Shown piece after piece: positions 34,982 to 64,000 of a stretch of 64,000 nucleotides of DNA. A program made the translations under genes and the position numbers. The first letter of the stretch is position 1; each line of letters starts with the position of its first letter. The notes below the pieces were generated by a model. It saw only the letters and a program-made list of their open reading frames with translations, searched no databases and was not told the DNA's origin. The stretch comes from Marsupella aquatica (Eukaryota > Plantae > Marchantiophyta): positions 15,345,037-15,409,036 of the forward strand of contig OZ316891.1 of assembly GCA_973895155.1 (NCBI GenBank). Reading direction: 5' to 3'.

Positions 34982-34993
34982 TGGTATCAGAGC
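34982..34993 (+). promoter_or_regulatory. Primer binding site complementary to the 3' end of initiator tRNA-Met
   Basis: TGGTATCAGAGC lies 2 nt after the 5' LTR. Confidence 0.95.
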
Positions 34994-41060: not shown

Positions 41061-41319
41061 TTTAAGGAAAACCAAACTTTGGAAATTCTGAAAATCACTA
41101 AATATTATTATTTTAATAAAAAGGGGGCAACATGACGCGTGGCTGCGCGTGAAACCCTGAAAATGACTGCAACGTCACATTTTTACCAATCCAACTTGAC
41201 GGGACCAAGAGACATGCTCACGCGAATAATAATAATAGAGAAATAAATCTTTGAGATCCTTTATATATGATAACCAGTATATAAGGAGTTTACAAATAGT
41301 TTCTAGAATGACATACAAA

Positions 41320-42842
41320 TTAATCTGATCTCATGCCGACTATTATTTTGGAAGCGTCCAAAATTGGGCGTCTGTTAAATTGCTCTACTAGATATCTATC
41401 TCCATGCCTCTGAATCACAGGGTCTTCCCATAGAGTATGATTATAATCATAATCTCTAAAAATAGATTTAACTGACCAATCTGAATAATCTCTTCCATTG
41501 GCAATGACAAGCGGCTCACAAGAGTTTGCTAGCTTGCTAAGATACGGAATCAACAAGTTAATCAGGAAACTGTCGTCGACCGACCCAAAATATTTGGGCG
41601 GAAATAATGATCCAACAACAGGATCTAAACAAGCATGAAATGCATCGGATTCGATAAGCATTATATTTTGCTGCAGATACGCCTTCGTATAAATTCCAAC
41701 CTTCTCAAAACACTTCAAAAATATCCGCTTATTTGATGTCACCCCATCGCATAAGTAACAATGAGACTGATCCCAAATATACTTAAATGAGGCCATTTCC
41801 ATCGCAGTAAAAATAGATGCTAAAATCTGATCTAAAAGGTTCTTCCCAAGAGAGGACCAGATCCCTACATCGAAATTCTCAAAACAGAATCTCAAGAATT
41901 CGTGAAGATGAGGCCTTGGAAAAACGTATATATTCCCAATCCGAATTCCAGTTGAGACCGCCATCAGTCGGGAATGCGGTGCAGTGTAACAGAGTAGATG
42001 CTCCACGTCTAAAACTATGAGCCCATTTTCTCTGCTGCAATGAATCTCCTGTAGAGAAACACAAGAAGATGCATGAGCCCGTATGGATGTAGTCACGCGA
42101 ATGGTCGCGTCACATATTACAGAGAAAAAATCCTCTACACTCTGGCCATTGATAAGTGACGTCTGTTGAAGTGCTTGATAAGAACTTGATCCGCATGTCT
42201 CTGCACGTACAGATGCTCCCATATATCCTTGTTCAGATCCCAATCTCGATGTAGATTTCTAATCGACCAGATGGGATAATCGAACTTGTTAGCGAACGCA
42301 AGACAAAGCCTTGAATTTGATAGCTTTCGTAAATATGGAATGAGGTCATCCCTCAAAAAGACATCATCCAACGATCCTTGAAACGACTTAGCGAACAATA
42401 ATCCGCATACAGCTGTCTGGCATGTATGGGAAGGACAGGCATCAATCTGGATTATATTCTCTGGTCGATAATCTTGAAACATATCACGTAGTCTCTCGAT
42501 AGATTTGAAGACAACAGTCTTATAATTTTTCTTCACATAACCAAGATTCCAGCAATGATCCCGCGTGAACACATATATCAGCTGCGATAGGTCGGTGCTC
42601 GACAACACTTCTGAAAGTATCTGATAAACCAGTTTATCGTCGAGAATAGACCAGACCATCACATCAAAATGATCATAACAGAATTTTATAAGATCATGAA
42701 GATGCGGCCTCGGAATGACACATAGAGATCCGATATGAATTCCGGGTGTCGACTTGAGCTGAGGAGTATATTTTGAAACAGAGCACAAGAAGTTTTCCAG
42801 TCCTAAACCTAGAAGTTGACGTGACCTGCTCCACTTAGACAC
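41320..42842 (-). CDS. Two tandem degenerate FCP1/SCP (NIF) HAD phosphatase-like domains (exons 42842-42141 and 42048-41320); possibly the tail of the upstream large gene
   Basis: Motifs PRPHLHDLIKFCYDHFDVMVWS, VVFKSIERL, PENIIQID and PRPHLHEFLRFCFENFDVGIWSS, YIWDQSHC, RIFLKCF, QNIMLIESD. A phase-0 GT-AG intron at 42140-42049 joins ...HLSMAR|EIHCSR in frame. The DxDxT motif is degenerate in both (LGLGLEN, VLDVEH). Confidence 0.8.
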
Positions 42843-42967
42843 CTGTAAATGAACAATTTGATTCTCATATTATGCAATTGCAAACAACCACGTGACCGGG
42901 CACGTCACTCCCAAAAGTTCAATTTCAATCAATTTATAAATAATAATTGATAATAAACAATAAACGT

Positions 42968-43873
42968 TTACTTATTGGACTTATCCCGAGCTTCTATAGC
43001 ACGGTCTTTCTTGGCAGATAAGTATTTCATAAATTCGTCAAACTTTTCTAAATGGTCTTTATTCCCCTGATTACGAATGATCACGTTTCTCCTCCAAAGA
43101 TTCGTCTTATCAATATAATCTTTCTCAAGATTTTCTTGAGAGAACGTTGGAATCCCATATCCACTAAGGAGCTCACGGAATGTCAACTTGTCAATTGACA
43201 TGTCGCATAGATATGGATATAGTTTCTTTCTAAAAAATAGGTCATCATCGAGCCCAGAATATGCATCGGGATAGAGCGATGAATAGAAGTCATTAAGGCT
43301 CGTCTTATATGCAGCGTCATCGATAAGAATGACATTCTCGATGTTGTAATCTTTAATATCGGCGGCAATGTCCGAGAGACATTTGACAAATAAAGGGATG
43401 TCATTATTATTCTTCCCAATAAGTCGAGTTGATTCTTGTCCCCATATAAATTTAATACGTTTCAAAACTTCGGGTCGAAGTATCAACCTTACACAAGATA
43501 GAATATTTTGTTTGAACATGCACGACCAGATCGCAATGTCGTATAGATCTGCCACCTTCTCAAGAAATTCCATTAAATGAGGCCTTGGATAGATAACCTT
43601 GTGCATCTGTCTCACACCCCTTGATCGAATGGGCATCCCAGGTCTGATCTTCTCTGACCAGATAAGTACCCGATTCAGATCAAAAATTACAAGTCTCTTC
43701 TGAACCGGTGACTTCTTTGCCGATGGATTAGGCGCCATCTGTACCTGTGATTTTTGTGCCGCAGGGTTTGGAGAACGTACTAGAACGGTCTGTTTGTTTC
43801 CCGCCTCCGGACGATCACCGGACTTCCGGACTGGTGCCTTCGATACTCGATCAGGGGGTTTCGGGATAGGCTT
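42968..43873 (-). CDS. FCP1/SCP-like HAD phosphatase domain exon (DLNxxL subtype)
   Basis: RLVIFDLNRVL, YPRPHLMEFL, YDIAIWS, FIWGQES, LFVKCL, ENVILIDDAAYK. Confidence 0.88.
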   Translation of the reverse strand, partial: KPIPKPPDRVSKAPVRKSGDRPEAGNKQTVLVRSPNPAAQKSQVQMAPNPSAKKSPVQKRLVIFDLNRVLIWSEKIRPGMPIRSRGVRQMHKVIYPRPHLMEFLEKVADLYDIAIWSCMFKQNILSCVRLILRPEVLKRIKFIWGQESTRLIGKNNNDIPLFVKCLSDIAADIKDYNIENVILIDDAAYKTSLNDFYSSLYPDAYSGLDDDLFFRKKLYPYLCDMSIDKLTFRELLSGYGIPTFSQENLEKDYIDKTNLWRRNVIIRNQGNKDHLEKFDEFMKYLSAKKDRAIEARDKSNK

Positions 43874-43959
43874 CTGTAAAACATTAAGAAATGAAAATAA
43901 GTTTATAACGCGAACGGTCGTGTGACTACAAAGAGAGACACTGAAATGAAGTGTATTAC

Positions 43960-44748
43960 CTGTACAAGATGGTCGTTCAGTGCTAGAATTCCACCGGAAA
44001 TGCCAATCATAGCAGCACGGATCCCGGTAACTAGGTTACTTGCGGACGTCGGCTTGCGGAAGTCCATGTCAAATAACGACAAGACTATCTCCCTACGGAA
44101 TTTCTCAATTTGATCCGTGGAAAAATTAATTCCGTTTCCTTGACACAAGCACTTGGCGTATCTCAAGATAAACACACCACAACTGTGGCCATCACTCTGG
44201 TGAGGAATATCATTCCGATATATCTGTTCCCAACCTGAGAGATCCAAGTTGACACCAGTTCTCCAGCCAATTTCGTCGGCGTAGTACTTCCCAACAATAT
44301 CTAGCACCCCAGGATTCTGTCGATTATGAACTAGAGAATCTAGGTACTCCAGCCGTTTCTTCTTCGGATACAAGACTACCAATGACCAATGTTCTTTCAC
44401 AGCATTGTGTACTGGAAAGACCAGTTTGTCGTATTCACTGATTTTTAGCAGAAACTCCTTTGTCCAAGCTGCCCTCTCCTCGTCAAAAATGGTAGGATCC
44501 ATGGAGAGAAGCTCAAAATGGTGTGTTTGGAAGAATTTGACAAGGTCTGACTTTCCAACTCTATCGAGAATCAGTTCGAGAAAACTCAAATAAGCGTTAA
44601 TTATATCATCGGTGAGCAACTCGCGCGGTCTCAAACACATCATATGTTTCCTCTTTATCGAGTGTTGTAAGAACTTGGTCAATAGCTCTTCCATATCCTT
44701 AGAAGGATCAAGGCATTGATCTATTCGACTAGCCAAATTTTCAAAAAA
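43960..44748 (-). CDS. Ulp1/SENP-family (peptidase C48) SUMO protease domain exon
   Basis: LRPRELLTDDIINAYL, KLVFPVH...EHWSLVV, LEYLDSL, IPHQSDGHSCGVF. The His-Asp-Cys triad and the oxyanion Gln are present. Confidence 0.92.
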
Positions 44749-45559
44749 CTGCAAAAAACAGAGATTTCAATACGCCTTCAAATAACGTACTGAGGTTGTA
44801 GCCTAAGGGTTGTAGCCTCAGAAAACAAAAACAATAACAGATCAATAATAAAATAATGACGTCTATAATAGAAACTTTAAGCTTATAGCTTGCGAATGAC
44901 CTTTGGATTGGGTGGATCCGGCCTTTTTGCAGCTGATCTCTTGGGTGCCTCAATCGCAACAACATCCTTCAGCCCTCCTCGAGACCGCAGTGATCGCTCC
45001 ACCGGACCAGTTTGCGAAGGTTGGAGCGATGAGGCGGGAAGACCTTCAAATGGTTGTGGCATTTGATTCAAATATTCCACAATCTGGGAATCCGATTCCA
45101 AAATATCCGGTGCCACAATTTCTACGTGAGTCACCTCTGCAATATATCGAGGTCGAGACCACGAACCCGGTCGCGTCAAGTCAGCTGTTAGTCTCTTAAC
45201 GACTTGAGCCGAGTCTGGTGCCAAAAACGTTCCCAGGTCTGGCACTCGATTCTCGGAAAAGCGCACATTATTGATGATTGTCTCCATTCTGGATGCAGTG
45301 GCAGTCTTCTCCTCGGTAATCAAAAGCTTCCAATATTGCAAAGCAAGGACTGCCTAGACTCGAAGCTACTCCGGTGAATATTTATTCCAATCATCCAATG
45401 AGACTGTACTTAAGGGTGGATCGTTAAATTCAAACTCCGGGCGAAGAAAATAGTCTAATATTTTCTTCTTAATTGCAACTGAGGGTGAAGAAGGCTTCTT
45501 CAAATTTAGCCTTATTTTCGGTAGACGTTGTGCCTCAGGAATAAGCGAAAGATCCTTGG

Positions 45560-46200
45560 CCCTCTCGGCCTCCTTCCTCGCTGCCTCCAGTCTTGCGGCT
45601 TCTTCTCTCTCCAGTCTTGCGGAATCGACCTTTTCTGCCTCCAACTTCTCCGCCTCCACCCTCTCTGGTCTTGCGGTCTCGTCCGCCATCCTCTCGGCCA
45701 GCAGCCTCTCAGCCGCCACACTCTCCGCCTTGGCCCTATTTTCCTCTGTCACTAAAAGGACTCTCGCAGCCTCCGCGTTCTCGGCCTTCGCTTTCTCCGC
45801 CTGGGCTTTCTCAGCCTCCGCTTTCTCAGCCTGGGCTTTCTCAGCCTCCGCTTTCTCCGCCTGGGCTTTCTCGGCATCCGCTTTCTTCGCCTGGGCTTTC
45901 TCGGCATCCGCTTTCTCCGCCTGGGCTTTCTCAGCCTGGGCATTCTCAGCCTCGGCTTTCTCCTTCTTCTTCGCGGCAGTTGCTTTTCTAGCTGTTGCCT
46001 TTTTCTTCTTAACCTCCTTCTTTTGAAGCTCCTCTTGTCGGGCCGCATCCTGCCGGGCCGCCTCCTCCAGCCTGGCCGCCTCCTACCGGGCCGCCTCCTC
46101 TCTGGCCTCCTCCTGCCGGGCCGCCTCCTCTCTAGCCTCCTCCTGCCGGGCCGCCTCCTCTCTGGCCTCCTCCTGCCGGGCCGCATCCTCTCGGTCCACC
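45560..46200 (-). repeat. Coding tandem repeats (EEAARQ/EEAR and AEKAQ/AEKAE units) forming a coiled coil
   Basis: 15-bp units such as TCAGCCTCCGCTTTC and TCCGCCTGGGCTTTC at about 45770-45960. 30-bp units CCTCCTCCTGCCGGGCCGCCTCCTCTCTGG at about 46050-46190. Confidence 0.9.
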
Positions 46201-48059
46201 TCATGTCGAGGCTCCTGTGTGGCCTCTTCATCAAAGTCCTCAGCGTCCTCGGAACCCTCCATCTCCTCGTCCTCTTCATCAGCGTTCTCAATGTCCTTCA
46301 TCTCCTCTCCGTCACTCTCTTCATCTCCTCTATTGTCGGAATTTCCGACGTTGTTCTGCGTATCGGTCATCCACTCTGGATCTTGGTCATTGACATCCCC
46401 ATCCGCGTCACCTTCCACGTCATCTTCCCCCTCACCATCCGCATCACCATTGCTCCCTGCATCCTCAACATTGAAGCCGCAGTCGACTTGATCTGAATAA
46501 AATCAGATCATTTGATAAGAATGACTCACGCGCATATTCGCGTGAAAAGAAATGTTATGAATGTCCACGCGCATGTTCGCGTGACGCAATAAAAAGTAAG
46601 AGGTTTCAAAAGTAACTTACCTTGGATTGGCCCACTAGGGTACTCCGTTGGTCGAATGTACAATCGATCGGAATCTTCAGAGAGTGCATACTCTTGCAAT
46701 AATTGATTACAAATATTATCAGGGATATGTTGTTCGTGGAGGACATCCAAAACATCAGCCCTGAGAGCAGTTACGGATGGACGGTACTTCATTAATTTAT
46801 CTATACATTTTTCTATACTAGCCCGTACTGGGTCAATCAATGACAGCATTGTATCAATTGTCGTCGTGGTGTGTTGCAAGAAACAAGACAACTCCCTATG
46901 CGTTGCCACAGGGTAGTAATATTTTACATTGGATCCAGCATCCCGTAAAAAAAGCTGAAATTAGTTCACAATATTAATTGAGAATATAATAATCTAAATA
47001 ATCTTAAAATCGAAACCCCAAAATATAAATCTCAAAACTTACCATTAAGCACTGGATCAAGTTCGTTCCCTCACCGAAGCATATAGCCCATTCCCCACAT
47101 TGGATGAATTGACTAACAATACTTTCAAAGAATGGAAGTATCTTTTCTGGGGAAGGTGTCGTGAACTCGCCGCTCTCTTCAAAATTGGCTATCTTCTCAA
47201 TCTGATATTTGGAGACCAATTGGAACTCGAGGGCTTGTGGATCGCCCATTGTGCTGAAGGCCAAGCTGTGAAAAGCGTAAGTTACAATAAGCTTCTTCTC
47301 CTTCGGCCGCTTCTGAATATAATGGCTATCGACAGCAACGTAGTGTGTGTACTTCCCTAATTCCCGTTTGATTAAGTAAGACTCAACGGGAGAGGCTACA
47401 ATAATAACCACATGGTGTGGTTTTGCCCCTATCTCGCTAGTAGCACGAAATAACCCCTCATAGAATGAGCAATTTGGCGGACGCAAATCTCCCATTGATG
47501 AGGGATCAAAATAAATCAAGCTCGCAAGGTTCTTGTCTTCACGTATGATACAGTCTGCAAACCCAGCATTTTGTATATCCTGCAGGGATCGCAATTTCAA
47601 CCTCTCACCGACCGGCTGCACTAGTTGGTTTCCTTGACTATCAACTGATTTCTGTATTCCTTCGACCAACCTGTAGAATATAGGGTCGATCTCCTTCAAC
47701 AAATTATCATTACTAATATTTACATTTAACACTAGTACATATTAAGCTGATTTTCGATGCTCAATTTTTGCGAACAATCGGCGTCCGATTCTTTTAGCAT
47801 CGGAAATTCCGATTATCAAAAAATGGCAATATGCCATACTCTCGGCTTTGAATATCTTCATTTCCGATATAATTGACAACGGAACCTTTCCGATGCGTTA
47901 AAAAACGGATCATATCTGTTAGAAAACACATCGGATCCCTCAACAAAAACTTTGATTGATATGTCCGATGTTTTTTGTAACGAAAATGATGTGCGTTACA
48001 ATATTGATCGGAAACTTTCCGTAGTTAATAATAACGGATATTATATCCGATTGTGCTAA

Positions 48060-48216
48060 CATGGCAAAGTCCGATGTTAGGAGAATGGGAAAGTCCGATG
48101 CTAGAAGAATGGGAAAGTCCGATGCTGGAAGAATGGGAAAGTCCGATGCTGGGAGTATGGGAAAGTCCGATGCTAGAAGAATGGGAAAGTCCGATGCTGG
48201 GAGTATGGGAAAGTCT
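48060..48216 (+). repeat. 21-bp tandem repeat (GAATGGGAAAGTCCGATGCTA-like), CACTA subterminal
   Basis: About 7-8 copies, with an inverted counterpart at 49063-49245. Confidence 0.95.
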
Positions 48217-49062
48217 GGTTATGACAAAAAGAAATTTTTTGATTGTGTTAGAATGAAAAGTTTTGATGTGTTAGATGGGGTATGTGGTTGCACCGATATA
48301 CTCTTCCCAAAAGATGCAATCATTCTTGCATGCATGAATAACTTCATACTTGAGGCAAATGGACTTGAGTGTTGTTTTTGCCTCATTCCAAGACCCAACA
48401 TATTGTTCCCTTACGGAAATATGTGCTCTACATGCCAAGTCCAAAATACATCATCTAGAAGGAGGTTGCTTGTCCCATGTAGTCTTTGTTGCAAGTCCAA
48501 CAACAACATAGTTGATAAAAGATGAGACAATCAGGAGCCATTGACGCTGAGGCTTTGGAAGGACCAAAATATCATCCATAACTAATAAGCCATAATTATC
48601 CCATATCAAATCTAATGAAGGAGGGCTTTACTATCGATGAATGACCCCTGCCAGATTTCTATTGGTTTCTCCTAGGGGAATGTAATAGGGTAACTAGAAT
48701 AGGTCACTTGATGCAAAGATCTAATCTCATGATAGAGAAAAATGGATCAAGAATGGGTCCAAATTATGGGTCTTAGTAAACTCACAAGTGTATAAAATCC
48801 CCAAACACTCTAAGTCAAACAACAAAAGTGCTAAGCTTGCATGTACAATGTAAGGAATAAGAACCACAAAGTTAAGCTCATGTTGGAGGAATAGCAATTG
48901 GGATGGGTGACCAATTAGTTGAGAAAATTTGAAGAGTTCACATGTCAAGGGAGATGGGCACCTAGCTCATAGTTCCAAATGAAAGTAGAAACCCAATTAA
49001 AGGAAGAGATGGGTGACCTGAGCATGTCGCGTCCGCTGAAATGCATATCCCATTTTGATTGC

Positions 49063-49245
49063 TTCGGACTTTCCCATTCTCCTAGCATCGGACTTTCCCA
49101 TTCTCCTAGCATCGGACTTTCCCATTCTCTCACCATCGAACTTTCCCATTCTCCTAGCATCGGACTTTCCCATTCTCCCACCATCGGACTTTCCCATTCT
49201 CCCACCATCGGACTTTCCCATTCTCCCACCATCGGACTTTCCGAT
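49063..49245 (-). repeat. 21-bp tandem repeat (CATCGGACTTTCCCATTCTCC-like), inverted partner of the 48060 array
   Basis: About 8-9 copies. Confidence 0.95.
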
Positions 49246-51423
49246 AGAAGTCCGATTGTCGATATCCGATACTATTAAAATGGCATGTTGCGATGCTAGT
49301 AGTATTGGATATATGGTTTTTCAAATTTTATTTTACAAAGGTGTCCGATGTGGAGAGAATCAAAAAAAGGAGGTAAAATGTACTAGTGTAAGCACTTCTT
49401 CAGATAACCACTCAACGCATCTCTCAACTGATTCAGGACCATCTTGTCGAGCTTAAAGCAATCAATCATTCCTTTGACCCGCAATTTCCGCGCTGAATCT
49501 GTCAGACTTTTCAGCTCCATCCAGGTGGATGTTTCCCCATTGAGTTTACTCAATAATAAAATCTCAAACTCAACTTTCGTCTTCTTCTTTATACAGAATT
49601 GCTCCAAACTCATGCTGGTCGTTGACAACACTGGAGCCTCAGAGGACTTCCTCGCCTTCCCAGATTTCACTTTGATGCTTCAGTTTTTGAGTATAGACAA
49701 TCTTCCGCTCAACATATATTCCGCTGCCTTTCGAAGAACCGAGTCTGAGCACCCTTGACAAGAACGGAACGTCTTCTTCAGAAGATGATAAGCACACGGA
49801 TTATCCACAATTTTGACGGCGTCCCTCTGTAAAATTCCGTTGTAAATTACAAGCTCTCCTGTCCTTGATAGTTCGTAGACCTCCATCCACTTCTTGAATG
49901 TTTCGTCCTCCATTGTAAAGAGAAACGGAGCCAATTCTCCAAATTTCATCATTTCGTTCTTCCCCATTTGAGCCCATGGGCAAACAAAACTCGTAGCTCT
50001 CATAAATACCTGAAAAACAATGGAAACATGACAATTCTAAGCTTGACGCGACCAGTCGCGTGATAAAAGTTTACACGAAAATGTGATCGAAGAGGGTTAT
50101 TTATATACCTTCCAATTTGGATGACGATAATGTGATCCAGGCCGCCCAAATGAGTTCCAGATATTACGATACTGTCGTACAATGGTGAGAAACTGTCCTT
50201 CTTCCATTGATGTTTGATGACAGTGGTTCAGAGCTTTCCATAATCCCATCAAATGAACATTATTGTCGTTGTTGAGCGTTGCCCAAAACATTACAGCTTC
50301 TACAGTACCGCAAGCGTCTCATACAACTTGGCTGACTTTGTCGTCCTCTCTCAGCAATTTGTACGCCATTATTGTGTGCTGGCCTCCGAGTATCCAGAAA
50401 TGACTGGTCATAATGTCCTCCTCCTTTGGCGATGAATCGTAGGGCGTCCCATTGTAGGCGGGATCTCTGTCGGCCTCCGACTGAACCCACTTCACAGGGA
50501 CTAAAAAGCAGCATCGCTTCTCGAACTTTATAGCCGAATGAGAGAGGAGTGAATTCTTTAGCCTATCTGTGTAATCATGATTCCACTCTCGGCACTTGAT
50601 GTGGTCCGGTGCAAGATGACAACGTGATGTCTCAACAAAAAATGACTTGCTGTTAAATATATTCACAACACTATATTCTTTGAGGAAAGAATCGAACAGA
50701 GCCCCGACATTCGCTGAGGTAATTACTTTCGGAAGATTCTCCGCCGAGTATACTTCAACCTTGCTAACTGGCGGGGCCTTTCCCAAGCGAAATCCCTGGT
50801 TGAAAGGAACTCTCTGGAACTCAAGTACGTCAATAATATATTGACAAATCAAATCTCCCGTTGATGCCTCTGGATCGGAAGGATATCCCACACTAGTAAC
50901 CTTTTCCAAGGCGTGCCTTGCACCTAGAAGATAATCGATTCTAGGCTGATTGAAGGTTACATATTGCGTTCGATCCAAACAAATACTTATTTTGTCTTCC
51001 TGCTGGTCGTCGCTGACTAGCAGAACCAATCCCTCTGTACACTCTTTAACTTTCATGTTCTTCTCAAAGAAACACCCGAGAATTTTTGATCTCTCCAAAA
51101 CTGTAGCTTTATCATTTCTTGCCACCACAAGACGGACAACCCCATTGCGAACGACTATTCCAAAATCGGATATCTCAGTCGATTCAAAGAGATGGATACT
51201 CTTTGTCTCCGTTGTTCTCTCTCTGATTGACTTTCCTCGATATGCAAGTATGGATGTCTCCGTGGGAGTCATTTTTGTCTTGGTTTTCTTTCAAGAAGCA
51301 GCTTTAGACGAGTCTCTTTTCCGCTTTGAGGTTCCGGTAGGATCCATTATGAAACAGACAAAATATTGAAAGTTAAACGTTTATTATAAAATACTAACAC
51401 GCGTTTGGTTGCGTCGTGCCGAA

Positions 51424-51954
51424 TTACATTTTAGGAACATTTATCCTGACCCAATCTTCTCGCTCATCTTCATCTAACCAAAACCAAAGGTTCCTAAACG
51501 TGTCAAGTTCAGATCCTTCAAATCCACCCAGAATATCCAGCGGCGGGAGAGTTCTGATGGATTCTGTAAATCTTAATGCTACACTCCGTGAAGTCAAATG
51601 CCTTCGAAGCGATTCATATCCTGGTCTATCAGTGAAGTCGTAAGCTACCAAGGTGACTGTCGCCCAAGTACCACTATAAGTAACTATGTGGCACCACTTC
51701 TTACTGACTGTTCGAATGGCGATCAAGTCCATGACCCGATTTTTAATCGCAGTATCCGACAAATTCCCAAGACAGTGGAAAAACTCTTTGACTAATGGCC
51801 AAATATATTTCTCGACAATATCGTCCGGAAGACCGGGTATCAGGTCTTCAGCTTGACTCCATATCATGTTTCGGTTCATAACCTTTGCACGTGCAATGCG
51901 CTCCATCATCATTTGACGATGAGATTTTCGATTCATGTCAAAGGACTGCAGCAT
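51424..51954 (-). CDS. F-box-like protein (paralog 1)
   Basis: LIPGLPDDIVEKYIWPLV ... IRTVSKKWCHIV, an F-box signature split by an insertion. Confidence 0.62.
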   Translation of the reverse strand: MLQSFDMNRKSHRQMMMERIARAKVMNRNMIWSQAEDLIPGLPDDIVEKYIWPLVKEFFHCLGNLSDTAIKNRVMDLIAIRTVSKKWCHIVTYSGTWATVTLVAYDFTDRPGYESLRRHLTSRSVALRFTESIRTLPPLDILGGFEGSELDTFRNLWFWLDEDEREDWVRINVPKM

Positions 51955-52153
51955 AATATGGAAAATATTAAGAACAAGAACCTATCCATTAAGAACTGGG
52001 ACCACCGAAATTCTGAGAAAATCTACCAAACCTTTCGATTAGGACATCTCGTTCTTCCTCATCTAAATTGTTATATTTGTTCGTAAACAATGCGATTTCG
52101 TCAGAAGTAGTAGTCCCAAGAACAGATATTTCTGGAAGGATAGAAATATCCTG

Positions 52154-52555
52154 TCAAATAACTCGACAGACTGAGTCAAACTCCAACTCCTCAGTTTCGG
52201 GTATGTCGTAAAGAGCATCATTTGCGACATCGACTATCCGGTTTGCTTGTTTGAGGATAGCCCATAACCTTGTATTTGTAACTAAAAAGTTCCACTTCTT
52301 GCTACAAGCTCCAAGCCGAATAAGGTCTCGGACCCTATCGATAACCAAATCGTTATCGAGGTGTCGATATCCACGCAATCTTTCAATTGAAATAAAGTGT
52401 TCGTAGAGTATTGGCCAAATGTTTGAAATGACCAAAACATCTGGTATTCCTCCAATGAGACTAGAGGAGGTTTCATCCAGCGTATCCCATATTGTTTTCT
52501 GTTTCTTTTCATGAGATGAAAGGAAATCTCGAGCCTCATTCAAAAGTTGGTTCAT
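52154..52555 (-). CDS. F-box-like protein (paralog 2)
   Basis: LIGGIPDVLVISNIWPIL ... LGACSKKWNFLVTNTRLW. Confidence 0.6.
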   Translation of the reverse strand: MNQLLNEARDFLSSHEKKQKTIWDTLDETSSSLIGGIPDVLVISNIWPILYEHFISIERLRGYRHLDNDLVIDRVRDLIRLGACSKKWNFLVTNTRLWAILKQANRIVDVANDALYDIPETEELEFDSVCRVI

Positions 52556-52620
52556 CTTGCTTTTATCATATCACAAAACATTGTTAGAAGACATACGACG
52601 CGCTTGGTCACGTAAGTTAA

Positions 52621-53208
52621 CTAGAATTCTTTAAAAGCGTAGATGTCACCCTCAAGGTATCCAATTTCGTGGCATCTGACTGTAAATTTCCATTTTTCAA
52701 GAGGGTGAAGAGCATCGTAAGTCTTCGTGAAGAGTTCCCTAAGATCTCTGGACATTGACCCCATGAATTTAATTCTTGGGTATTTCTGGAAGAAACTTTG
52801 AACTGTCGATGAGAGAGACTCATTTCCGATCGGTTTAGTAGGATTTCCTGGGAAAGCCAAATCTAATAAACTCAACTTGATTACACCCAGAAGATAGGTA
52901 TTCCCAACAAGGTGGCGCCATCTGCGACACACCGAAGATAGTCCTACAAACTCATCCAATTCCTTTATTGAGAAATTTCCTGCATTAATCGAGGAATTAA
53001 AAGTCTCCTGGATCCGAGGCCATATCAATTCCGTGACAATAAAATCTGGAAGTCCTGGTAGTAGTGTTTCAACAAATACAGAATATCCCGCAAGTAGACC
53101 ATCTTGGCTTCTGTCCAAAATGTCAAATATTGGGCATAGATATCTGAAGCTCTCCAGACCAGGTTCGCCCATGACTCTTTTCAGCCAAATGATATATCCC
53201 AGATTCAC
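52621..53208 (-). CDS. F-box-like protein (paralog 3)
   Basis: LLPGLPDFIVTELIWPRI ... LSSVCRRWRHLV. Confidence 0.62.
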   Translation of the reverse strand: MNLGYIIWLKRVMGEPGLESFRYLCPIFDILDRSQDGLLAGYSVFVETLLPGLPDFIVTELIWPRIQETFNSSINAGNFSIKELDEFVGLSSVCRRWRHLVGNTYLLGVIKLSLLDLAFPGNPTKPIGNESLSSTVQSFFQKYPRIKFMGSMSRDLRELFTKTYDALHPLEKWKFTVRCHEIGYLEGDIYAFKEF

Positions 53209-53269
53209 GCGACTGGTCGCGTCTACAAATCAGAATGCATAAACAATTCTTTGATAGATTGATCATAAA

Positions 53270-54125
53270 TGTCTTCGTCCTCTAACAGAACCAGTCAATG
53301 AGAGAGCAACCTCAGACGCGACTGGTCGCGTCAACTGAACCTAAACAACTATATCCACTGAACCTTATGTGGAGATTTGGATATGGTACGCGCTCAGTAA
53401 ATCTATCCAGTTTCCTTCTCACACGCGACTGGTCGCGTCAACTGGTCCTAAAAGGAACCTTACCTCCTCTAACAGAACCAGTCAATGAGAGATCTACGTC
53501 AGACGCGACTAGTCACGTCAACTGGTCCTAAAAGGAACCTTACCTCCTCTAACAGAACCAATCAATGAGAGAGCTACCTTAGACGCGACTGGTCGCGTCA
53601 ACTGAACCTAAACAACTATATCCATTGAACCTTTCTTGTGGAGATTTGGATATGGTACGCGCTCAGTAAATCTATCCAGTTTCCTTCTCACACGCGACTG
53701 GTCGCGTCAACTCGTCCTAAAAGGAACCTTATCTCCTCTAACGGAACCAGTCAATGAGAGAGCTACCTCAGACACAACTGGTCGCGTCAGCTGAACCTAA
53801 AGAACTATATCCACTGAACCTTATGTGGAGATTTGGATATGGTACGCGCTCAGTAAATCTATCCAGTTTCCTTCTCACACGCGACTGGTCCTAAAAGGAA
53901 CCTTACCTCCTCTAACAGAACCAATCAATGAGAGAGCTACCTGACGCGACTGGTCGCGTCAACTAAACCTAAACAACTATATCCACTGAACCTTCCTTGT
54001 GGAGATTTGGATATGGTACGCGCTCAGTAAATCTATCCAGTTTCCTTCTCACACACGACTGGTCGCGTCAACTGGTCCTAAAAGAAACCTCATAGTATTT
54101 TCACGCGACTGGTCGCGTCAACAGC
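53270..54125. repeat. Compound tandem repeat (about 80-250 bp sub-units) rich in the ACGCGACTGGTCGCGT palindrome
   Basis: The block GTGGAGATTTGGATATGGTACGCGCTCAGTAAATCTATCCAGTTTCC occurs 4 times and CCTCTAAC(A)GAACCA(G/A)TCAATGAGAGA about 5 times. Confidence 0.95.
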
Positions 54126-55216
54126 TCAAACAACTTTTGGACAATAGGAGAATACAGTGATACAACTATGATTGCTGACCCGTACGGACAAGGAAATCCG
54201 AGTAAGCATGATTTCATTCATTTGTATTCATTCATTTGTATTCATTCATGAACTTTACAATAATTCAGATGTTTGAGCTCTGTCATTGTGAAACTATTAT
54301 ATATCAGAAGTTTAGAGAATGATCCAGCTAAGATGATTCAATTTAGCAGTCTACTGGTTGTATTCATCAATTAAAGGATTCAGTGTAATGAGATTCACAT
54401 AACATGAGAGTTTATATGATTAAATTCACAGCGGGCAAGTTTGTAATGACTTACTTAAGATAATTCAGGTTGTATTTTAATTAGTGAGTTTGTATGATTC
54501 ACACATATTTGAGTTTACAAACAAACCGCGTTATGAAAACTGTGCTTAACAATCAACAAAAATTTTAGCAAACCACAATCAACACCAGCAGAAAATGTAG
54601 AAATTACACCTGAATTCTGAAAAATTGATGTAATCGTCTGAGAGATTGACATCCAAGCACTTGAAGACCTTGCTGCGGCATTCCAGAAAGTAAATATAAG
54701 ATTGAAGATATTAATATGCTAAGCAACAACAACACAGCTTCTATACTTCTATACATAGAGCTTCGCTGCCACCAATTGAATAACATGTGCTTAATGCTAA
54801 GGAGCTCATTATGTCGAGTTAAAAAGACTCTTTTAGAAGTACAATCAAAGCTGTGGATAGGCAAACTGAGCATGAATAAAAGCGCACTAAACCTGAAGAT
54901 TCAAAGAGGTGAAACAAACCTGAATGTTGAATGGAAGGAGCTAAAACAAGCTGCCAAAAAGTAGTTTGAGCTGCTGAAACATGTTGATCAAGCTGATATG
55001 AGCTTAAAATTGGCTGACACGAGCTGATACAAGCACTCCCAAAAAGCTAGCTACAACGAACTAGCAAACTAGAAGTGAATACGAGCTGTAAATGCAAGCT
55101 GCAATGCGCCAACGAGCTCCTAGTCGAAACGATGGACAACTACTAAGAGCTGCAACGCGCCGACAAGCACCTGACCACAATGAACGAGTTGCAACGACAA
55201 AAATGAAATCCAGGGC

Positions 55217-55290
55217 AGGAGCGAGAGCGAGAGCGAGAGCGAGAGCGAGAGCAAGAGCAAGAGCGAGAGTGAGAGCGAGAGCGACGAGAG
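55217..55290 (+). repeat. (GCGAGA)n microsatellite
   Basis: About 10 imperfect hexamer units. Confidence 0.9.
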
Positions 55291-56714
55291 CAGGCGTGCA
55301 AAAGTCTAGGGAGCGAGAAACAACAACAATGAACAATGAACTCGAGACCGTGGGCGCCGACACTAAGGAAGGACTAATTAGGGTATTGTTTTAGCATAAC
55401 CCTAATAACAGCCTAGCGACATTAAGGTTCCAGATGATCTCCGTACACTCCACCATCGACTGAACAAACTATGCAATCGTGAAAAAAAGATTACCGGATT
55501 TTTTGATTTTCCGTACTAAAGAAGATTTCTATTTGATCGCCAATTTGAAATTTAAACCGGTAATTATGCAACTGCGAAAGATTGTTAGTGGGGACCCCCG
55601 GATCCGGATCCGTATCTTCACTATATCTGCCAATTCAAATCCAAAATGTGAACGGACGACAACTTTCTCATGATCGTTCCATCACGTAGTGGAGGCAAAC
55701 TTTGAAATCATTCCATTTTGGTAGTGGAGACCGTCGGATCCGGATCCGTACTCCACTCTCTATCTTGCCAATTCAAAACCTTACTCTAAACGACGTAAAA
55801 CGATTCTCATGGTCGGGGAGAACCGATATTCAAAATCAATCCTGTACAATGATTCTCACGACTGGAGACTCAACCAATTTTCAAAATCAAAATCGAGTCC
55901 AAATGAACACATCCTCCATGGAGTCAATAGACTGATCTCATTGCTCACGGATCATTCTTCATTTTCAGTTTCTCCTGACCAGGATACCAGCTAGGCTCTC
56001 AACGGAGGCTGATCCAAGGCACATTTGAGGTGGAGCAGATTGGATCATTCGACTATTCCAGTCAGAGGCGGAGCTCATTCAAGCAACGCTGGCGCAGTTC
56101 TTGTTGTATCACCTTCAATCTTGGGGAGAGCACATCCGATCAAGCGGGAGAGTTGCGACGAAGCGAGACGACAAAGATTTAGAACCTCCATAGTCTGCCT
56201 CATTCATCGAAGCATTCTAGCGGACCAACAAAGAGCGGCTATTCTGAAATCACTGTCTGGTCGAGGATTTTGATCTTGATACGATCAACAAGTTGTCATT
56301 CTCTGGTGGTGGGATTCGGTCACGATACTCAAGGAAATTGGAGTTCGAAGGAGGAGGCTTAGTTGGCTGGGATGAGGAGGAGGCTACGCTGGAAGGAAGA
56401 GGCTTGGCTGGGAGGAGGGTTTCCGCCAACATCGGAGGGTTGCCGCCAACATTGCTGAGACCACACACAACTGAATAACTTGTAAGTATCAATCAGCATT
56501 AATTCCGCAATAAATGAGGAGAGTAGTTGCCTTAAATCATGCATTCAATGCATGAATTGAGTCAATGAACTTATGGTCCAATTTCTCACTCCGATTTTGA
56601 TCAATCCGTGTTTCAAGTCCAATACAGAAGCAATGTATAAGAAGTACTAGTAGAGGATCCGAATGAATTCTCTAGTCTAAAATTGTATGGCGTACGCGTA
56701 TAGTTGTCCGTACG

Positions 56715-58170
56715 TTTTGCTATTGTTTATTGTAGTCGACGGCCTAGCAAAACGAAACGTAATCGAGGTCCATTTTTCAGATCTTCCTGATCTCAACTTG
56801 TTAGTAGGATGACCTATTTTTTGGTTACACATGTAGTTCGTCACGCGCACAGTCACGTGAACCAATTTATCTCGTGTCTTTTGATATTGTTTATTGTAGT
56901 CGATAGCCTATCAAATTGGCCAGCAATCTATTTTAAAACCAACGTCTTTGTTTCATCACGCGCACGGTCGCGTTAATGTTTTAGAGGTCAGCGAAAGCTC
57001 TGCACTCTTAGACGTAATCGCCCCTTTATTTCTCAGATCTTCCTGATCTCAACTTGTTAGTAGGATGACCTATTTTTTGGTTACACATGTTATTCGTCAT
57101 GCGCACAGTCGCATGAACCAATTTATCTCGTGTCTTTTGATATTGTTTATTGTAGTCGATAGCCTAACGAATTGGCCAGCAATCTATTTTAAAACCAACG
57201 TCTTCGTTTCATCACGCGCACGGTCGTGTTAATGTTTTAGAGGTCAGCGAAATCTCTGCACTCTTAGACATAATCGCCCTTTATTTCTCAGATCTTCCTG
57301 ATCTCAACTTGTTAGTAGGATGACCTGTTTTTTGGTTATACATGTAGTTCATCACGCGCACAGTCGCATGAACCAATTTATCTCGTGTCTTTTGATATTG
57401 TTTATTGTAGTCGATAGCCTAGAAAATTGGCCAGAAATCTATTTTGAAACCGAGTTCTGATTCACGCGGCCGGTCGCGTTAATGTTTTAGAGGTCAGCGA
57501 AAGCTCTGCACTCTTAGACGTAATCGCCCTTTATTTCTCAGATCTTTCTGATCTCAACTTGTTAGTAGGATGACCTGTTTTTTGGGTTACACATGTAGTT
57601 CATCATGCGCACAGTCGCGTGAACCAATTTATCTTGATATTGTTTATTGTAGTCGACTGCCCAGCGAATTGGCCAGAAATATATTTTAAAACCGAGGTCT
57701 TCGTTTCATCACGCGCCCGGTCGCGTTAATGTTTTAGAGGTCAGCGAAAGCTCTGCACTCTTAGACGTAATCGCCCTTTATTTCTCAGATCTTTCTGATC
57801 TCAACTTGTTAGTAGGATGACCTGTTTTTTGGGTTACACATGTAGTTCATCACGCGCACAGTCGCGTGAACCAATTTATCTTGATATTGTTTATTGTAGT
57901 CGACTGCCCAGCGAATTGGCCAGAAATATATTTTAAAACCGAGGTCTTCGTTTCATCACGCGCCCGGTCGCGTTAATGTTTTAGAGGTCAGCGAAAGCTC
58001 TGCACTCTTAGACGTAATCACCCTTTATTTCTCAGATCTGCCTGATCTCAACTTGTTAGTAGGATGACCTGTTTTTGGTTACACATGTAGTTCATCACGC
58101 GCATAGTCGCGTGAACCAATTTATCGCAGGTCTTTTTGATATTGTTTATTGTAGTCGACAGCCTAGCAAA
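56715..58170. repeat. Tandem array of about 6 units of 240-256 bp, each with two ACGCG-N6-CGCGT variants
   Basis: GATATTGTTTATTGTAGTCGA recurs at about 56883, 57139, 57394, 57636, 57883 and 58138. Confidence 0.96.
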
Positions 58171-58375
58171 TTGTCAGTCAGAGGAATCTCGATTTTTCCT
58201 TGATTGCAAAAATGGTTACATCGATCCCGAAGGACTTCGGATGTGGAATCCATATCCACTAGCACTATCCAGGAATTTAAGCTACATAGTATCTATAACA
58301 AGTTCTAACTTGAACTACTCTTGAATCTGTAGTTCTAATCTTCAACTACTCAAAATATTGTTGACTTCGATCGAG

Positions 58376-58918
58376 TCAGTCATTCCAAGATGAAGGCATC
58401 CACTCATCGGTGTCTGGTGTGGATTCCCTTGAATCCATAAATTCTTCCTTTGCCCAAGTCCTAACGTCCATAGATTTTCTCGGCTTTCTCTTTCTATAAT
58501 ACAAATCAGAATCTTTGTTCATCTCTAATTGCCTTTTCTTTGGTGCGTCCACTTTCTTGGCCTCCTTCTTGACTGTCTTAGCGTCTGCTGCTGCTTCCCC
58601 CGAAATGGATTTGACGCATGCTCTGGCCTTCAACTTCTCCCCCCTCAAAACAGATTCCACGAGGGCTTTGCCCTTTAACTTCTCCCCTGATGCCATCTTT
58701 GTAGTCATCTCTGTCGGATTGGTCTCCATCTGATCTTCCATCGACAAATGTGGTGAACAATGTTGTCTCTCACAAAACATTTGACCCGATTTAGTCACCA
58801 TAAATATTATATTACATCGTTGACACATTCTGTAAGGAGTACCATGAATTCGATACGTCGAACCTTCTTAATCGTCCGTCGGAACATCCTCATTCTTTGA
58901 GCTCAGCGGAGTAGTCAT
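58376..58918 (-). pseudogene. Small Cys- and Lys-rich protein of unknown function, one in-frame TAA at 58868-70
   Basis: MTTPLSSKNED...*...RMCQRC...FCERQHC, a basic stretch RKRKPRK and an acidic C-terminus DTDEWMPSSWND. It is oriented divergently from the transposase. Confidence 0.45.
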
Positions 58919-59279
58919 CGCCCTTCAAACAAGAGATGCTGACCGAGACTAAGAATTGGAAATGAGAGAGCTGATGTGCAAATAGATTATCCAGTAGCCA
59001 GAAAGTGGAATGCGTGGGGGAATGAGCAATAGGGATCATCTCAATGCTTTATACTGTTTAGTCTCCACTAGTCATTGTACATAGTGGTTTCTAGAAGAGG
59101 GTGCACGTTTGACTGGCGCGTATTAGAATTGGCGGGAAGTTCAGTTGTCCTCTAATTATGGCTTTAATTTCATGTTTGGCGACCGCCCCGGGAATACTGA
59201 TTGCTAGTGAAGTACTGAGATTTCTTATGAAGGTCAGTAGTTACGGACTGTCCGGTGTCCACTCATTGGTAAACTGGTA

Positions 59280-60000
59280 CTGTCCACTCATTTTTCCTGA
59301 GTGGAGTTGAAATGATTGTCGTAATCGATTGTAGTCGTTCTCATTCACTTGAAATGACTGACGGACCATGCATTATCTTTACCGGTATGTGTGATGCCTT
59401 TAGATCCATAATTGTATCTTCTTGTCTCGTGCGCAATCGTATCTTACTTATGAAGTACCAATTACGAGCTAGAGTTTGGGCCTAGCCTTCTAGCTTCTAC
59501 GTCGTAGACCCTGTACCCTCTGACTAAGGTCACGCAACATGCCTTTAGATCCATAATTGTATCTTCCTGTCTCACGCGAAATCGTATCTTACTTATGAAG
59601 TACCAAGTACAAGCTAGAGTTTTGGCCTAGCCTTCTAGCTTCTACGTCGTAGACCCTGTTATCCCTACACCCTCTGACTAAGGTCACGCGACTAGTCGCG
59701 TGCAGGGCAGTGCATTGACTACATTCTGCCTACTTATTGACGGTTGTGACAGGACAATGCAGTTCACGGATGTTTTACTGGCGCTTATTAGCACTATTGT
59801 CCTCAGTAGTTACTGACTGTCCACTCATTTGTTCTGAGTGGATGTAAAATGATTGATCGTAATCGATTGTGGTCATTCTCATTCATTTGACATGACTGAC
59901 GGACCATGCATAGTCTGTTTCCGGTATGTGTGGTACCTCTAGGGTCACGCGACCAGTCGCGTGCAGCGCAGTGCATTGACTACATTCTGCTTATTGACCG
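59280..60000. repeat. Duplicated blocks upstream of the transposase
   Basis: TGCCTTTAGATCCATAATTGTATC at about 59395 and 59540. TGTCCACTCATTT...CTGAGTGGA at about 59281 and 59818. GGTCACGCGAC(T/C)AGTCGCGTGCAG at about 59682 and 59943. Confidence 0.88.
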
Positions 60001-60089
60001 ACGTGACAGGACAGTGCGGTGAAATTGACGGACGTGACAGGACTGTACGCTTACAGTGATATTCTCTGATGTGCAGGATCATAATTATT

Positions 60090-63000
60090 ATGGTGACATC
60101 GACAGTCTGGATCAGGGAAGGCGGACAAGTTATTATAGGCATACGTGAGAAACAGGTTGGAAAAGGTCACGTGATAAGTCTTGATCCTTCCAGGGTTTGT
60201 CACAATGTTCCTCTTGGGGCGGACAGAGTTCTTCTTCTATTGGAGGAAGTTTTTGACGAGACCATTCTATGCGAAGATGGCAAACTTTTGAAGGACATGA
60301 TTGGGGGTTACCTTGTATGGGAAAGGAATCAGCTTTTTCGAGCTCCCATGGAATCGAAGGATGTGTTTGGCACTGTTGGTGATGATCAAGATCCAGTCAA
60401 TCAAAATTCTGATGGGAACAACCATAATGAGAGTCGGTCTGGTGTGGAAGTAGTTTTACCAAAGGCCTTGTGGATGGGCATGCCTGTAAAGGTGGTGGAT
60501 GAGAACAAGTTGATTTTTGCAGTGGCAACTATACATGTTCTAGATCCTATAGTCAAGCTTGGGGATGTCACCCTTGGGAATACACATGTGGGAATTCTGA
60601 TCAACAATTTTGTCGAGGGAGCTACCATAGATCATCTGAAGCATAGAGATTGCTTAAAAGCTTGGTCGATGGACCAACTCATTGCCAAGGATGGCAACTT
60701 GTTGTCTTTCCACAACATCAGGCAACCTGTGGGAGGGAACACATCTCCAGCAAGTGGTAAGCGGTCCTACGTCCATAAAAGTAGGAAAAGAAAGAGTCCA
60801 TCTTCCCAGACATCTAGAAGAGACACATCTTTGGCACGTCAAGATGTGTTGTTGATAAACACTAAGGATTGTTGTAGTGAACATTGTTGCCAATATTTGG
60901 ACCGCAACTTGGCTATGGCAATTAGGCAAAAATGGTGGTCAAAATCTTTTGCGGAGCGCAAGGAGGAGGAAATCAAGGCTATTAAAAATACAATACACTT
61001 GGGTATTGGAGAAAGGATTCTAGCAGTGGAGGGCAAAGTATTGTGCTTGGAGGCATGGAGAATCATTCATTCAAGAGGAAAGACTCAATTTTATGCCTTG
61101 AAGAAGACTGTGATGGCTGGAATGAACATAGGTACCCCTGGTAATGCTGGAAAAAGGCGTATGTCCGAGAAAGTATCTCAAGCGTTCATGTCAATGAAAG
61201 AGATTATTGAGGAGGCAGCTGATCATCATCCAGCCAAGTTGAGAACCATGGCAGATAATACAAGGATGGTTTTGAGGGAATTGCCAACAAATCTTACTTG
61301 GGAGAATATTAGAAACAGGGTTAATGTTGTCAACCAGGAGGCTGGTCTTCCTCCAATTTCCCAACCCACCTTGAGTCATCTACATCAGATGTATTTCAGG
61401 GAGTTCTCATGTCACAAAAAGGGAAACAACTTTTCAAAGTGTACAACTTGTAGTGAGTTGCTTCAATGGAAAGCAAACCTTACAGGAGCTAAGGAAGAGT
61501 TAGAGGGCCTAAGGCGTGACGAGGAGGAACATCACCAAGACCACACACAGCAAAGAATGTGCTATCATACCTGGAGATATGAGTCCATCCATCGTCCAAA
61601 GGAAGTGTTATGCCTTATTCATGATAAGATGGATCATTCAAAGACAGCTCTCCCAAGAATGCCCTTCAATCCTAAGCATGTGGATGGTGCCCAAAAGTTC
61701 CCAATTACTGTCACTGGTATCCTTACTCATGGTCATGGTCCCAAGGCCATAGCCCAATATCATGTTGGAGTGTGGCCAGGTGATGTCAACATCACTATTG
61801 GGTCAATTGATTCAATACTAAGGATGTTGGAAAACCCAAATCCAATGATCAAATCACTTGTGGAGGGGCCAGACTCGACAAGTCTTTTTAAAGACCTCCT
61901 TTTTGGGAGAGCAGATATCTTGGAGGCAAGTGTCCTTAGAGCATTTGAGGATGACATTGCCTACATCTCAAGCCTAGGTACTTTACTCACAATCCTTTAA
62001 TTTATTATTATTTAATAGTATAAGCTCACACACACTGACACTCTACTTTGTGTAGTTGTTGCTCCTCCTAGCCAAGGTTTCATTAATAGGGTTTAAACCC
62101 TAAACCCTAAATTGGGGTTTAGGGTCTGACTAGGGTTTTATTTAAAAGCATTCTGAGATTGTTACATTGTGATGCAGCACCTGAGGCACCGAAGTTCAGG
62201 CCCCTTCCACGAGTATTGAAGCTACAACTGGATAATTGTGCCTCAGACAACAAGAACAGATATATGATGGCTTATTTGTCATTGTTGACGGCAAGGGAGG
62301 TGTTTGAAGAGGTTCATCTTGGTTTTATGGTGGTTGGGCATACTCATGAGGACGTTGACGGTATGTTCGGGCATTTTTCAGAGTCTATGATGCATAACCC
62401 CACATACTCATTGCCTGAGTTAATGTCCTTGTTCATGAGAGCAAGGACACCCAATGCAGTCCCACATTTTCTATAGGAGGTCCCAGATTTCAAAAACTAC
62501 TTAGCTCCATTCATGTTGAAGGGCCCTGAGGCATTGGTGGGGCATTTAAAACCCAGGCTGTTTAGGTTCTATGTTCGTCATGATAGTATGCCATGCTTCC
62601 AATACAAAATGAAGTCAACTGATCAGGGATGGTTACCCAAGGAAGGTATTGAAATGTGGTCATGGAAAGATGACAAAAGTCCTCACATCCCAATTGGGGT
62701 GCCCAAACGGCTACCAATGATGGAGTTGAAAATGCTTCCTGAAGTGCTGACAGGGTTGAAGAAGCATGTGTCATTCTTTGAGTTTATTCTAAAGCGAACA
62801 AAAGAGGAAGAACCAAAGTGACGTTGGACAACTCTCATCAATTATTGGAATGACATTGTAGATACTCTACAGGGTGAGCAGGTGCAATATGAACCTGAAG
62901 GTGCACACAACTTGGAATACGGGTTTTGGCCTTTATCAATATGGAGAGAGCACGTTCCACCAGAATATCGAAATGTGGCATGTGAGTTGGAGGCAACAGT

Positions 63001-63466
63001 GGATTATGTGGGACCAGCAAAAGATAAACCTCCTGAGAGTTTTAACCCTAGGGTTGATGTTGTGAAGGGCTGTTATGTGTTGGTACGGCCGGACGACTCA
63101 CACCTGGATGTTTATCCCGTCCATATGGGGTTAGTTGTTACAGATGTGGTAGAAGGACCAGTGAATGAACAAAACCTTCTTACTCATGTATGTGGCGTTG
63201 AGTGGTTTAGACCATTTATGGCAAAGAAGCAACGTGGTCAATCAGACTGGCAGCCAAGAGAGCGGTGGGCAGATTCTTGGGATAAGAAATGGGAACGTGA
63301 TCCATCTCCAATATACAAGGAAGCTGAGACAATAGATGTTTCCTCTGCCTTGTGGTGTTTCAAAGCACGCAAAGGACCAGTGACAGGGCTGGTAGGAATT
63401 CCAAAGAATGTTGCTGTCAAGGCAAGAGACTATCTCTTGACATGCATAGCAAGTGACAAATCCTAG
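60090..63466 (+). pseudogene. Sola1-like / DUF7869-type RNase H-fold (DDD) transposase, spliced, with two in-frame stops
   Basis: Exons 60090-61977, 62056-62076 and 62178-63466, all phase 1 GT-AG. Motifs CCSEHCC, FSKCTTC, LCLIHDKMD, LKLQLDNCASDNKNRY and GFMVVGHTHEDVDGMFG. Stops TAG at 62474-76 (HFL*EVPDFK) and TGA at 62819-21 are in frame. The superfamily assignment is from memory of the motifs. Confidence 0.8.
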
Positions 63467-63539
63467 ACAGTAATGAAGCATGTAGTTTAGCATATAGTTT
63501 AAAAGGCAACTCAGAATAGTAGTAGCCAGAGAACTCAAG

Positions 63540-64000
63540 TTTAGACAAGTCTTATCGTCTAAGTTAGTTAGTTGGTTAGTTTATTTAAGATATAATATTA
63601 GTTAGTGGGGCCTTAGTTTGGTGATATATATTAAGGCATGATATTATTGACATTCAAATGAATGTCCAGTAGACATTGTAATATACAACAATCCTATTAA
63701 TAAATAATAATTATAGTTACACCCTCAAGTGAACTCAACTTTCAATGATTTATGATTTTATATGGTTCCATGCCTGATTGAGTCAAAGCAATAGAAACTA
63801 ACTAATTAAAGGGTGATACTATAATTGTAGGTCACGCACCCTGGTGCGTGTCAATCTTTTTTGTATTCAACCTATAGTAATTAAATAGACAAGTTAGTTA
63901 GTTGGTTAGTTTATTTAAGATATAATATTAGTTAGTGGGCCCTTAGTTTGGTGATATTAAGGCATGATATTATTGACATTCAAATGAATGTCCAGTAGAC
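63540..64000. repeat. AT-rich direct repeat downstream of the transposase
   Basis: AAGTTAGTTAGTTGGTTAGTTTATTTAAGATATAATATTAG...GAATGTCCAGTAGAC occurs at about 63561-63675 and again at about 63891-64000. Confidence 0.85.

Follow-up and report, generated by a model that had tools for sequence, protein, structure and literature searches.

Does a DNA methyltransferase-like domain with a degenerate catalytic motif, encoded in a mobile element of a liverwort, still modify DNA, or might its fold be kept for something else? The question is raised by a stretch of 64,000 nucleotides from Marsupella aquatica (contig OZ316891.1, positions 15,345,037 to 15,409,036 of the forward strand; hereafter the window), in which a preliminary description had placed a β-class N4/N6 amino-methyltransferase-like domain at 47726-46900. 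According to a recent proposal, giant transposons of algae encode ParB-methyltransferase proteins that bind the element's DNA and methylate it, and the same design appears here in a land plant, with a methyltransferase that is apparently dead yet conserved. The content of the window is eukaryotic, a dynein heavy chain gene and a copia element being followed from about 41.1 kb by a large DNA element. The multi-exon dynein gene (6000-33000, minus strand; Pfam AAA_6/7/8) is of axonemal type and suggests that the host has flagellated cells. The copia retrotransposon (34577-40130) has two LTRs that are 97-98% alike, and an inverted, more diverged LTR-end fragment (40590-41030) lies after it. A frame at 3671-4036 (plus strand) resembles, by a motif, the C-terminal end of a plant RNA-dependent RNA polymerase.

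The large element carries the following features, in positions of the window.

41134..63850, no strand assigned: large DNA element, its span traced by an 18-bp near-palindrome present in 32 copies
41320..44035, minus strand: three NIF/FCP1-type phosphatase cargo frames (PF03031, E = 1.2e-11, 2.1e-10 and 6.2e-15)
43903..44766, minus strand: Ulp1/SENP-type protease cargo frame, directly downstream of the methyltransferase-like gene (PF02902, E = 3.4e-19)
51424..53229, minus strand: three F-box-like cargo frames, upstream (PF00646/PF12937, weak, E = 0.001-0.014, under the curated cut-off)
60060..63463, plus strand: DUF7869 transposase in two exons (PF25273, E = 3e-36)

The near-palindrome is of the type CACGCG-N6-CGCGTG, and it occurs 32 times in 41.1-64 kb, once in the first 34.5 kb and not at all between them, shuffled controls averaging 0.36 copies and never exceeding 2 (100 shuffles). 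Since the pattern was derived from the element itself, this count speaks for enrichment and not for function. Two arrays, at about 53.2-54.1 kb and 56.7-58.2 kb, contain all but 12 of the copies, and the palindrome could be a binding site of the ParB-like protein described below or of the transposase. Copies are often intronic or located between cargo genes, one perfect palindrome lies at 59685, and the tandem array at 56772-58200 is built of units of 242-256 nt with two palindrome copies per unit. The transposase, on the strand opposite to the cargo, has two in-frame stops and the acidic motifs DKMD, LDNC and GHTHED, which may form its catalytic triad. With this transposase and a palindrome-marked span of 41.1-63.8 kb, the gene of interest belongs, as had been proposed, to the cargo of a mobile element. 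Neither the true ends with a terminal repeat pair nor a target duplication of the large element was found within the window. Contigs 80-100% similar to the region number 878, 3411 and 2427 in three sequencing runs and 83 in a fourth, numbers in which depth is not equal to copy number; such hundreds to thousands of contigs in three of the four runs place the region in a repeat family.

The accessory gene that encodes the domain is arranged as follows.

50109..51272, minus strand: exon A, encoding the N-terminal region and a ParB/Srx-like region that contains WILGGQHT
50321-50319, minus strand: stop in exon A, at the place of an Arg in the homolog P0001
49389..50009, minus strand: 5' part of exon B, a helical region and the best conserved part of this exon, with a stop at 49682-49680
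47730..49388, no strand assigned: non-autonomous CACTA element in exon B (1,659 bp) with CACTAGTACA terminal inverted repeats and a 3-bp target duplication
47043..47726, minus strand: 3' part of exon B, a short helical linker and the methyltransferase-like core
about 47621-47043, minus strand: methyltransferase-like core, residues 36-228 of the structural model
47507-47496, minus strand: motif IV site DPSS, with the D codon at 47507-47505
47078-47067, minus strand: motif I site FGEG, with F starting at 47078
46955..47042, minus strand: putative intron, with GT at 47042-47041 and an in-frame AG at 46955
46621..46954, minus strand: probable exon C, placed by motif spacing and starting with DAGSNVKYYYP
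44883..46492, minus strand: predicted last exon, with an acidic stretch, 15-nt repeats coding for EAARQ/EKAQA-type coils and a basic tail

The three peptides on which the domain had been recognized, ASLIYFDPSSM, GAKPHHVVIIV and PEKILPFFESIVSQFIQCGEWAICFGEGTNLIQCLM, are present in that order in a single open minus-strand frame (47726-47043). This part of the originally proposed span holds as one coding piece, whereas its last 143 bases would consist of an intron and the beginning of the next exon. When read straight from 47043 toward 46900, the frame runs into stops beyond the GT at 47042-47041. Seven of 11 homolog clusters extend to this donor, and the intron is placed there because the alignment ends at this point in all seven. 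In a higher-depth contig, variants at 46956 and 46944 would place the in-frame acceptor 12 nt farther downstream in the gene. The CACTA element in exon B contains 24-bp subterminal repeats in inverted arrays; its empty site, with 47726 joined to 49389, is found in contigs of three of the four runs, and homologs align across the insertion point without interruption. Within the insert, a remnant at 48222-48560 resembles an En/Spm transposase by eye and has no Pfam match. The last exon has stops at 46085-46083, 45368-45366 and 45356-45354, the latter two missing from higher-depth contigs. This copy is regarded as a pseudogene, because the CACTA element splits exon B and stops are found in exons A and B and in the tail, the transposase having stops as well. 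A gene model of Calypogeia (P0009) reaches from the end of the ParB-like region across exon B into the methyltransferase-like domain, and both domains might lie in one protein; exon A is 59% identical to P0001.

The domain was searched for by sequence in several ways. The exon in the window gives no match in Pfam (PF01555 included), PHROGs, NCBIfam or PDB (phmmer and profile), and nothing was obtained from a word-based protein search, from Atlas, from metagenome and viral contigs or from phage tblastn, the last of which was also negative with the homolog P0007. Scored against 11 canonical enzymes, this single sequence was equalled or exceeded by 65 of its 100 shuffles, and with exon C added it likewise did no better than shuffles. 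A HMMER search with the exon gave 12 matches at E ≤ 0.001, and a match to PF01555 was obtained neither for the exon nor for any of these 12 proteins. P0013, a protein with Calx-beta repeats, was dropped as a false match, and P0010, of which only the first 100 residues align, was excluded from alignment A3 while still being counted at motif IV. The family profile aligns weakly to 20 canonical enzymes in the expected motif register, with a score of 21.8 (probability only 2.4%), which was reached by none of 60 column shuffles; against 13 ParB-fused phage methyltransferases (cut at 300 residues), 11 of 40 shuffles reached the score. Of 10 clusters looked up, two have named homologs, both from Calypogeia fissa and 28-34% identical, and residence of the homologs in transposons is assumed. 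A domain silent in Pfam in this way suggests that structure is needed for such domains to be found.

The β-class amino-methyltransferase fold proposed from the letters alone was recovered by structure prediction. An AlphaFold model built on an 18-row alignment of family members only (the window and 17 relatives), with no templates, has a pLDDT of 80.7 and a pTM of 0.75, compared with a pLDDT of only 38 for a single-sequence model; it ends before exon C, from which the last strand would come. The best PDB match by Foldseek is CcrM (E = 2.3e-6), and the best 40 of 96 matches at E ≤ 0.001 are all β-class or MT-A70 methyltransferases. Matches to viral structures at the same threshold (n = 15) comprise eight named N4/N6 methylases, five unnamed proteins and two RNA-virus polymerases. 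In a comparison by VIA with 48,161 chains, rows 1-19 are all β-class or MT-A70 enzymes with the core covered (Z 8.2-13.0), headed by MboIIA (Z 13.0, rmsd 3.4, 163 aligned residues) and CcrM (Z 12.5, rmsd 3.5, 167 aligned residues) and followed by M.BceJIV, TTHA0409, M.RsrI, M1.HpyAVI and M.PvuII (7th), with N4CMT in the 10th place. Identity to the structural matches is only 7-16%. Chains of β-class and MT-A70 enzymes align over residues ~37-228, which bears out the suggested order of motif IV before motif I, whereas most other methyltransferases cover only ~37-160, as is expected for this permuted order with motif IV N-terminal to motif I. Since the model matches β-class enzymes over the whole core, the domain almost certainly has the predicted β-class N4/N6 DNA methyltransferase fold, a Rossmann-type SAM-dependent fold.

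The fold can be retained without the chemistry, and the motifs of the relatives bear on this point. Motif IV is covered by nine of the 11 homolog clusters and motif I by seven. At motif IV the nine clusters read DCSV, DSTL, DSSI, DATL, DGTI, DSTV, YASI, DSTL and DTSL, so that D is kept in eight of nine, while P at +1 and an aromatic residue at +3 are found in none. At motif I all seven covering clusters have F-[GS]-[EK]-G, of the CF[GS][EK]G type to which the window also belongs, in a loop about two residues shorter than DPFxGSG. Neither [DNS]PP[YFW] nor DxFxGxG, the DPPY and FxGxG signatures that relatives might have kept, is present in any of 20 proteins. The erosion of the catalytic and SAM motifs noticed earlier is thus confirmed, although not the route imagined for it: DPPY was thought to have become DPSS, whereas the homologs follow D-[SCAGT]-[ST]-[LIV], with YASI in one, and none shares the P of DPSS. 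In run X1, the deepest contig listed for 47107-47503 has a single difference in 397 letters, while two changes would be needed for an aromatic residue at the fourth position, and a high-depth contig over 46458-47136 has FGEGTN unchanged. DPSS as a decayed DPPY of this copy alone was rejected, since the homologs also lack DPPY and the high-depth contig has too few changes. The loss in homologs and in high-depth contigs alike suggests that inactivity is a property of the family rather than decay of the copy in the window, and the idea of a pseudo-enzyme, which now leans on this family-wide loss, appears strengthened. In the structures of N4CMT and CcrM, the carbonyl of the motif proline and the tyrosine position and stack the target base (PMC10406627). 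Canonical methylation by the domain is, as far as the motifs tell, very probably absent. The catalytic motif being missing in every relative that covers it, the domain is likely to be a DNA-binding helper and not an enzyme.

A residual pocket might still be of use. The domain could bind SAM or a flipped modified base, as a reader of 4mC, 6mA or 5mC or as an enzyme with a non-canonical active site; the aspartate of motif IV in eight of nine clusters and the F-x-[EK]-G of motif I in all seven speak for such a pocket, as do H105, E184 and G220, which are invariant in all rows covering them, and the CG-rich palindrome. The stacking aromatic residue and both prolines are gone in nine of nine clusters, however, the loop of motif I is short by some two residues, and the start of exon C (DAGSNVKYYYP), which corresponds to the expected motif II strand, contains no acidic residue by eye. 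On this balance, retained binding of SAM or of a modified base is rather unlikely.

The domain might otherwise be a vestige, that is, an enzyme that died once and persists, with no role of its own, only as a spacer that still folds within a long protein. The copy in the window is a pseudogene, with its CACTA insertion and several stops, the domain has diverged faster than the preceding region (44% versus 59% identity to P0002), and the Calypogeia gene model P0009 ends inside the domain, all as would be expected of a vestige. Against this stand open frames and 45 of 228 columns conserved at 75% or more over 11 rows, with pairwise identity of 23-60% among six representatives, and a confident model that is obtained with the 18 rows and not without relatives. 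We infer from the aligned sequences, which also have a putative splice donor in common, a long-term constraint on the domain, and a mere vestige is regarded as unlikely.

A dead methyltransferase fold could also serve as the inactive partner of an active enzyme encoded elsewhere, like METTL14 for METTL3 or MTA9 for MTA1. Chains of METTL14 and MTA9 are among the structural matches, and METTL14 is described as a motif-disrupted part of a dimeric enzyme (Iyer et al., PMC4738411). However, a β-methyltransferase profile able to detect 12 of 13 control enzymes accepts none of the 1193 frames in the window, and canonical bacterial enzymes outrank the MT-A70 group in VIA. No [DNS]PP[YFW] was found in the coding frames of the element. 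Such a partnership is therefore given little credence. A tie to the liverwort sperm 4mC enzyme MpDN4MT1, of which the domain would be a relative or the source as part of host 4mC biology, is highly improbable: both are of the β-class fold in a liverwort and the named homologs come only from Calypogeia fissa (2 of 10 clusters), but the active MpDN4MT1a/b of Marchantia, expressed in sperm, are tandem host genes that keep TSPPY (bioRxiv 2021.02.12.428880), a motif absent here, where the retained residue is D and not S, nothing beyond the fold connects them, and in VIA, where differences are near 1-2 Z, PvuII (7th) and N4CMT (10th), both N4 enzymes, come after six others.

The reading that we moderately favour as a whole places the domain in the middle of an accessory protein encoded by a giant cut-and-paste DNA transposon, where it would serve as a non-catalytic scaffold bound to the palindromes of that element. 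The ancestor would have been a ParB-plus-methyltransferase accessory gene such as those in algal giant transposons. The N-terminal ParB-like part would locate the 18-bp palindromes of the element, and the dead methyltransferase fold might have been retained, as in METTL14, for gripping DNA or a partner. The protein could then coat the element and aid its transposition or its resistance to silencing, and the SUMO-protease, phosphatase and F-box cargo would possibly act together with the coating protein. A domain dead but conserved across divergent relatives suggests, at the level of sequence, that an element can keep the binding role of the fold and not its methylation.

The weakest step of this scaffold reading is ParB, which leans on a motif, a resemblance to DUF3723 and the algal precedent. 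Exon A contains WILGGQHT, of which GGQH is conserved in P0001, and T presumably stands where ParB has R. The region gives no ParB match in Pfam or NCBIfam; the score of a two-sequence profile against 40 phage ParB domains was reached by 16 of 40 shuffles; a metagenome scan with an alignment of the ParB-like region found nothing; and plasmid tblastn of P0001 returned one chance match. The N-terminal region of P0001 (window 50109-50780) resembles DUF3723 clusters by Atlas language-model features, with a score of 0.95 that comes without alignment or E-value. DUF3723 is a conserved cargo of fungal Starships and is not termed ParB-like in the available text of that report (bioRxiv 2021.12.13.472469). 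The resemblance, a lead only, might connect the accessory proteins of giant elements that are otherwise unrelated.

The precedent is clearest in Ectocarpus, where Sola1-1_Ec32 is a 21.5-kb element with a gene of 1,104 residues for a ParB-like and N4/N6 methyltransferase protein on the strand opposite to the transposase (PMC12477816). The element in the window shares with it a DNA transposon of about 20 kb, an accessory gene opposite to the transposase and nested insertions, as well as, putatively here, one long protein in which an amino-methyltransferase fold comes after a ParB-like part. They differ in that the domain of Sola1-1_Ec32 is predicted to make 4mC or 6mA (PMC12477816), whereas the catalytic motif here is lost family-wide, and in that a land-plant host and additional Ulp1, NIF and F-box cargo are found here; the two are likened by layout and not by sequence. 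The Sola superfamily is characterized by a DDD transposase, terminal inverted repeats and a 4-bp target duplication (PMC10741241). The present element has a DUF7869 transposase, and its terminal repeat pair was not found inside the window. In the Plavaka elements of the red alga Bostrychia, PAG2 combines PF01555 with SET and PAG3 a ParB-like domain with a 2OG oxygenase, and inverted-repeat arrays beside the ParB-like gene of red-algal Plavaka have been proposed as binding sites (bioRxiv 2025.02.11.637652). A giant DNA transposon with ParB-like (putative here) and DNA methylase cargo and with inverted-repeat arrays is thus common to both, although in Plavaka ParB and the methylase are separate genes, PAG2 is found by Pfam, and the transposase is of the EnSpm/Plavaka type and not DUF7869. 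Self-binding and self-modification are proposals in both algal papers (PMC12477816; bioRxiv 2025.02.11.637652).

Among enzymes, the domain is like M.MboIIA, CcrM, M.BceJIV, M.RsrI, M.PvuII and rotifer N4CMT in its fold, in the motif order IV-...-X-I and in about 160 aligned residues, and unlike them in an identity of 7-13%, the absence of [DNS]PP[YFW] and a shortened SAM loop. METTL14 and the methyltransferase of the DIRS1 retrotransposon also have an amino-methyltransferase fold without catalytic residues, the latter being transposon-borne as well, but the DIRS1 domain derives from PCIF1, belongs to group 2 and is part of a retroelement polyprotein, and METTL14 is a subunit of a host RNA methylase (PMC4738411).

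The ParB-methyltransferase design of transposons is already known from algae; what is new is a land-plant example, together with structural and family-level evidence for a conserved pseudo-methyltransferase. In a literature search for such an arrangement in land plants, nothing but the algal papers and one review came up, and Iyer et al. 2011, which the Ectocarpus paper cites, or supplements may list bryophyte members. In a bolder and doubtful extension, a lineage of giant transposons in early land plants would have converted a ParB-methylase of bacterial origin to a reader guided by palindromes, which loads at the element's own parS-like CG-rich sites, its dead pocket sensing or shielding 5mC, sperm 4mC or modified adenines. 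If true, this reader would counter silencing and would have evolved independently of the VANDAL system. The scaffold reading comes down to a testable pair, a single protein and a single 18-bp palindrome. As for the remaining cargo, the protein-modifying frames (NIF/FCP1 phosphatases, Ulp1 protease and F-box-like) are all on the strand opposite to the transposase, and a further minus-strand frame at 58379-58867, without a Pfam match, encodes 163 residues with CxxC...CxxxxC spacing and a basic stretch.
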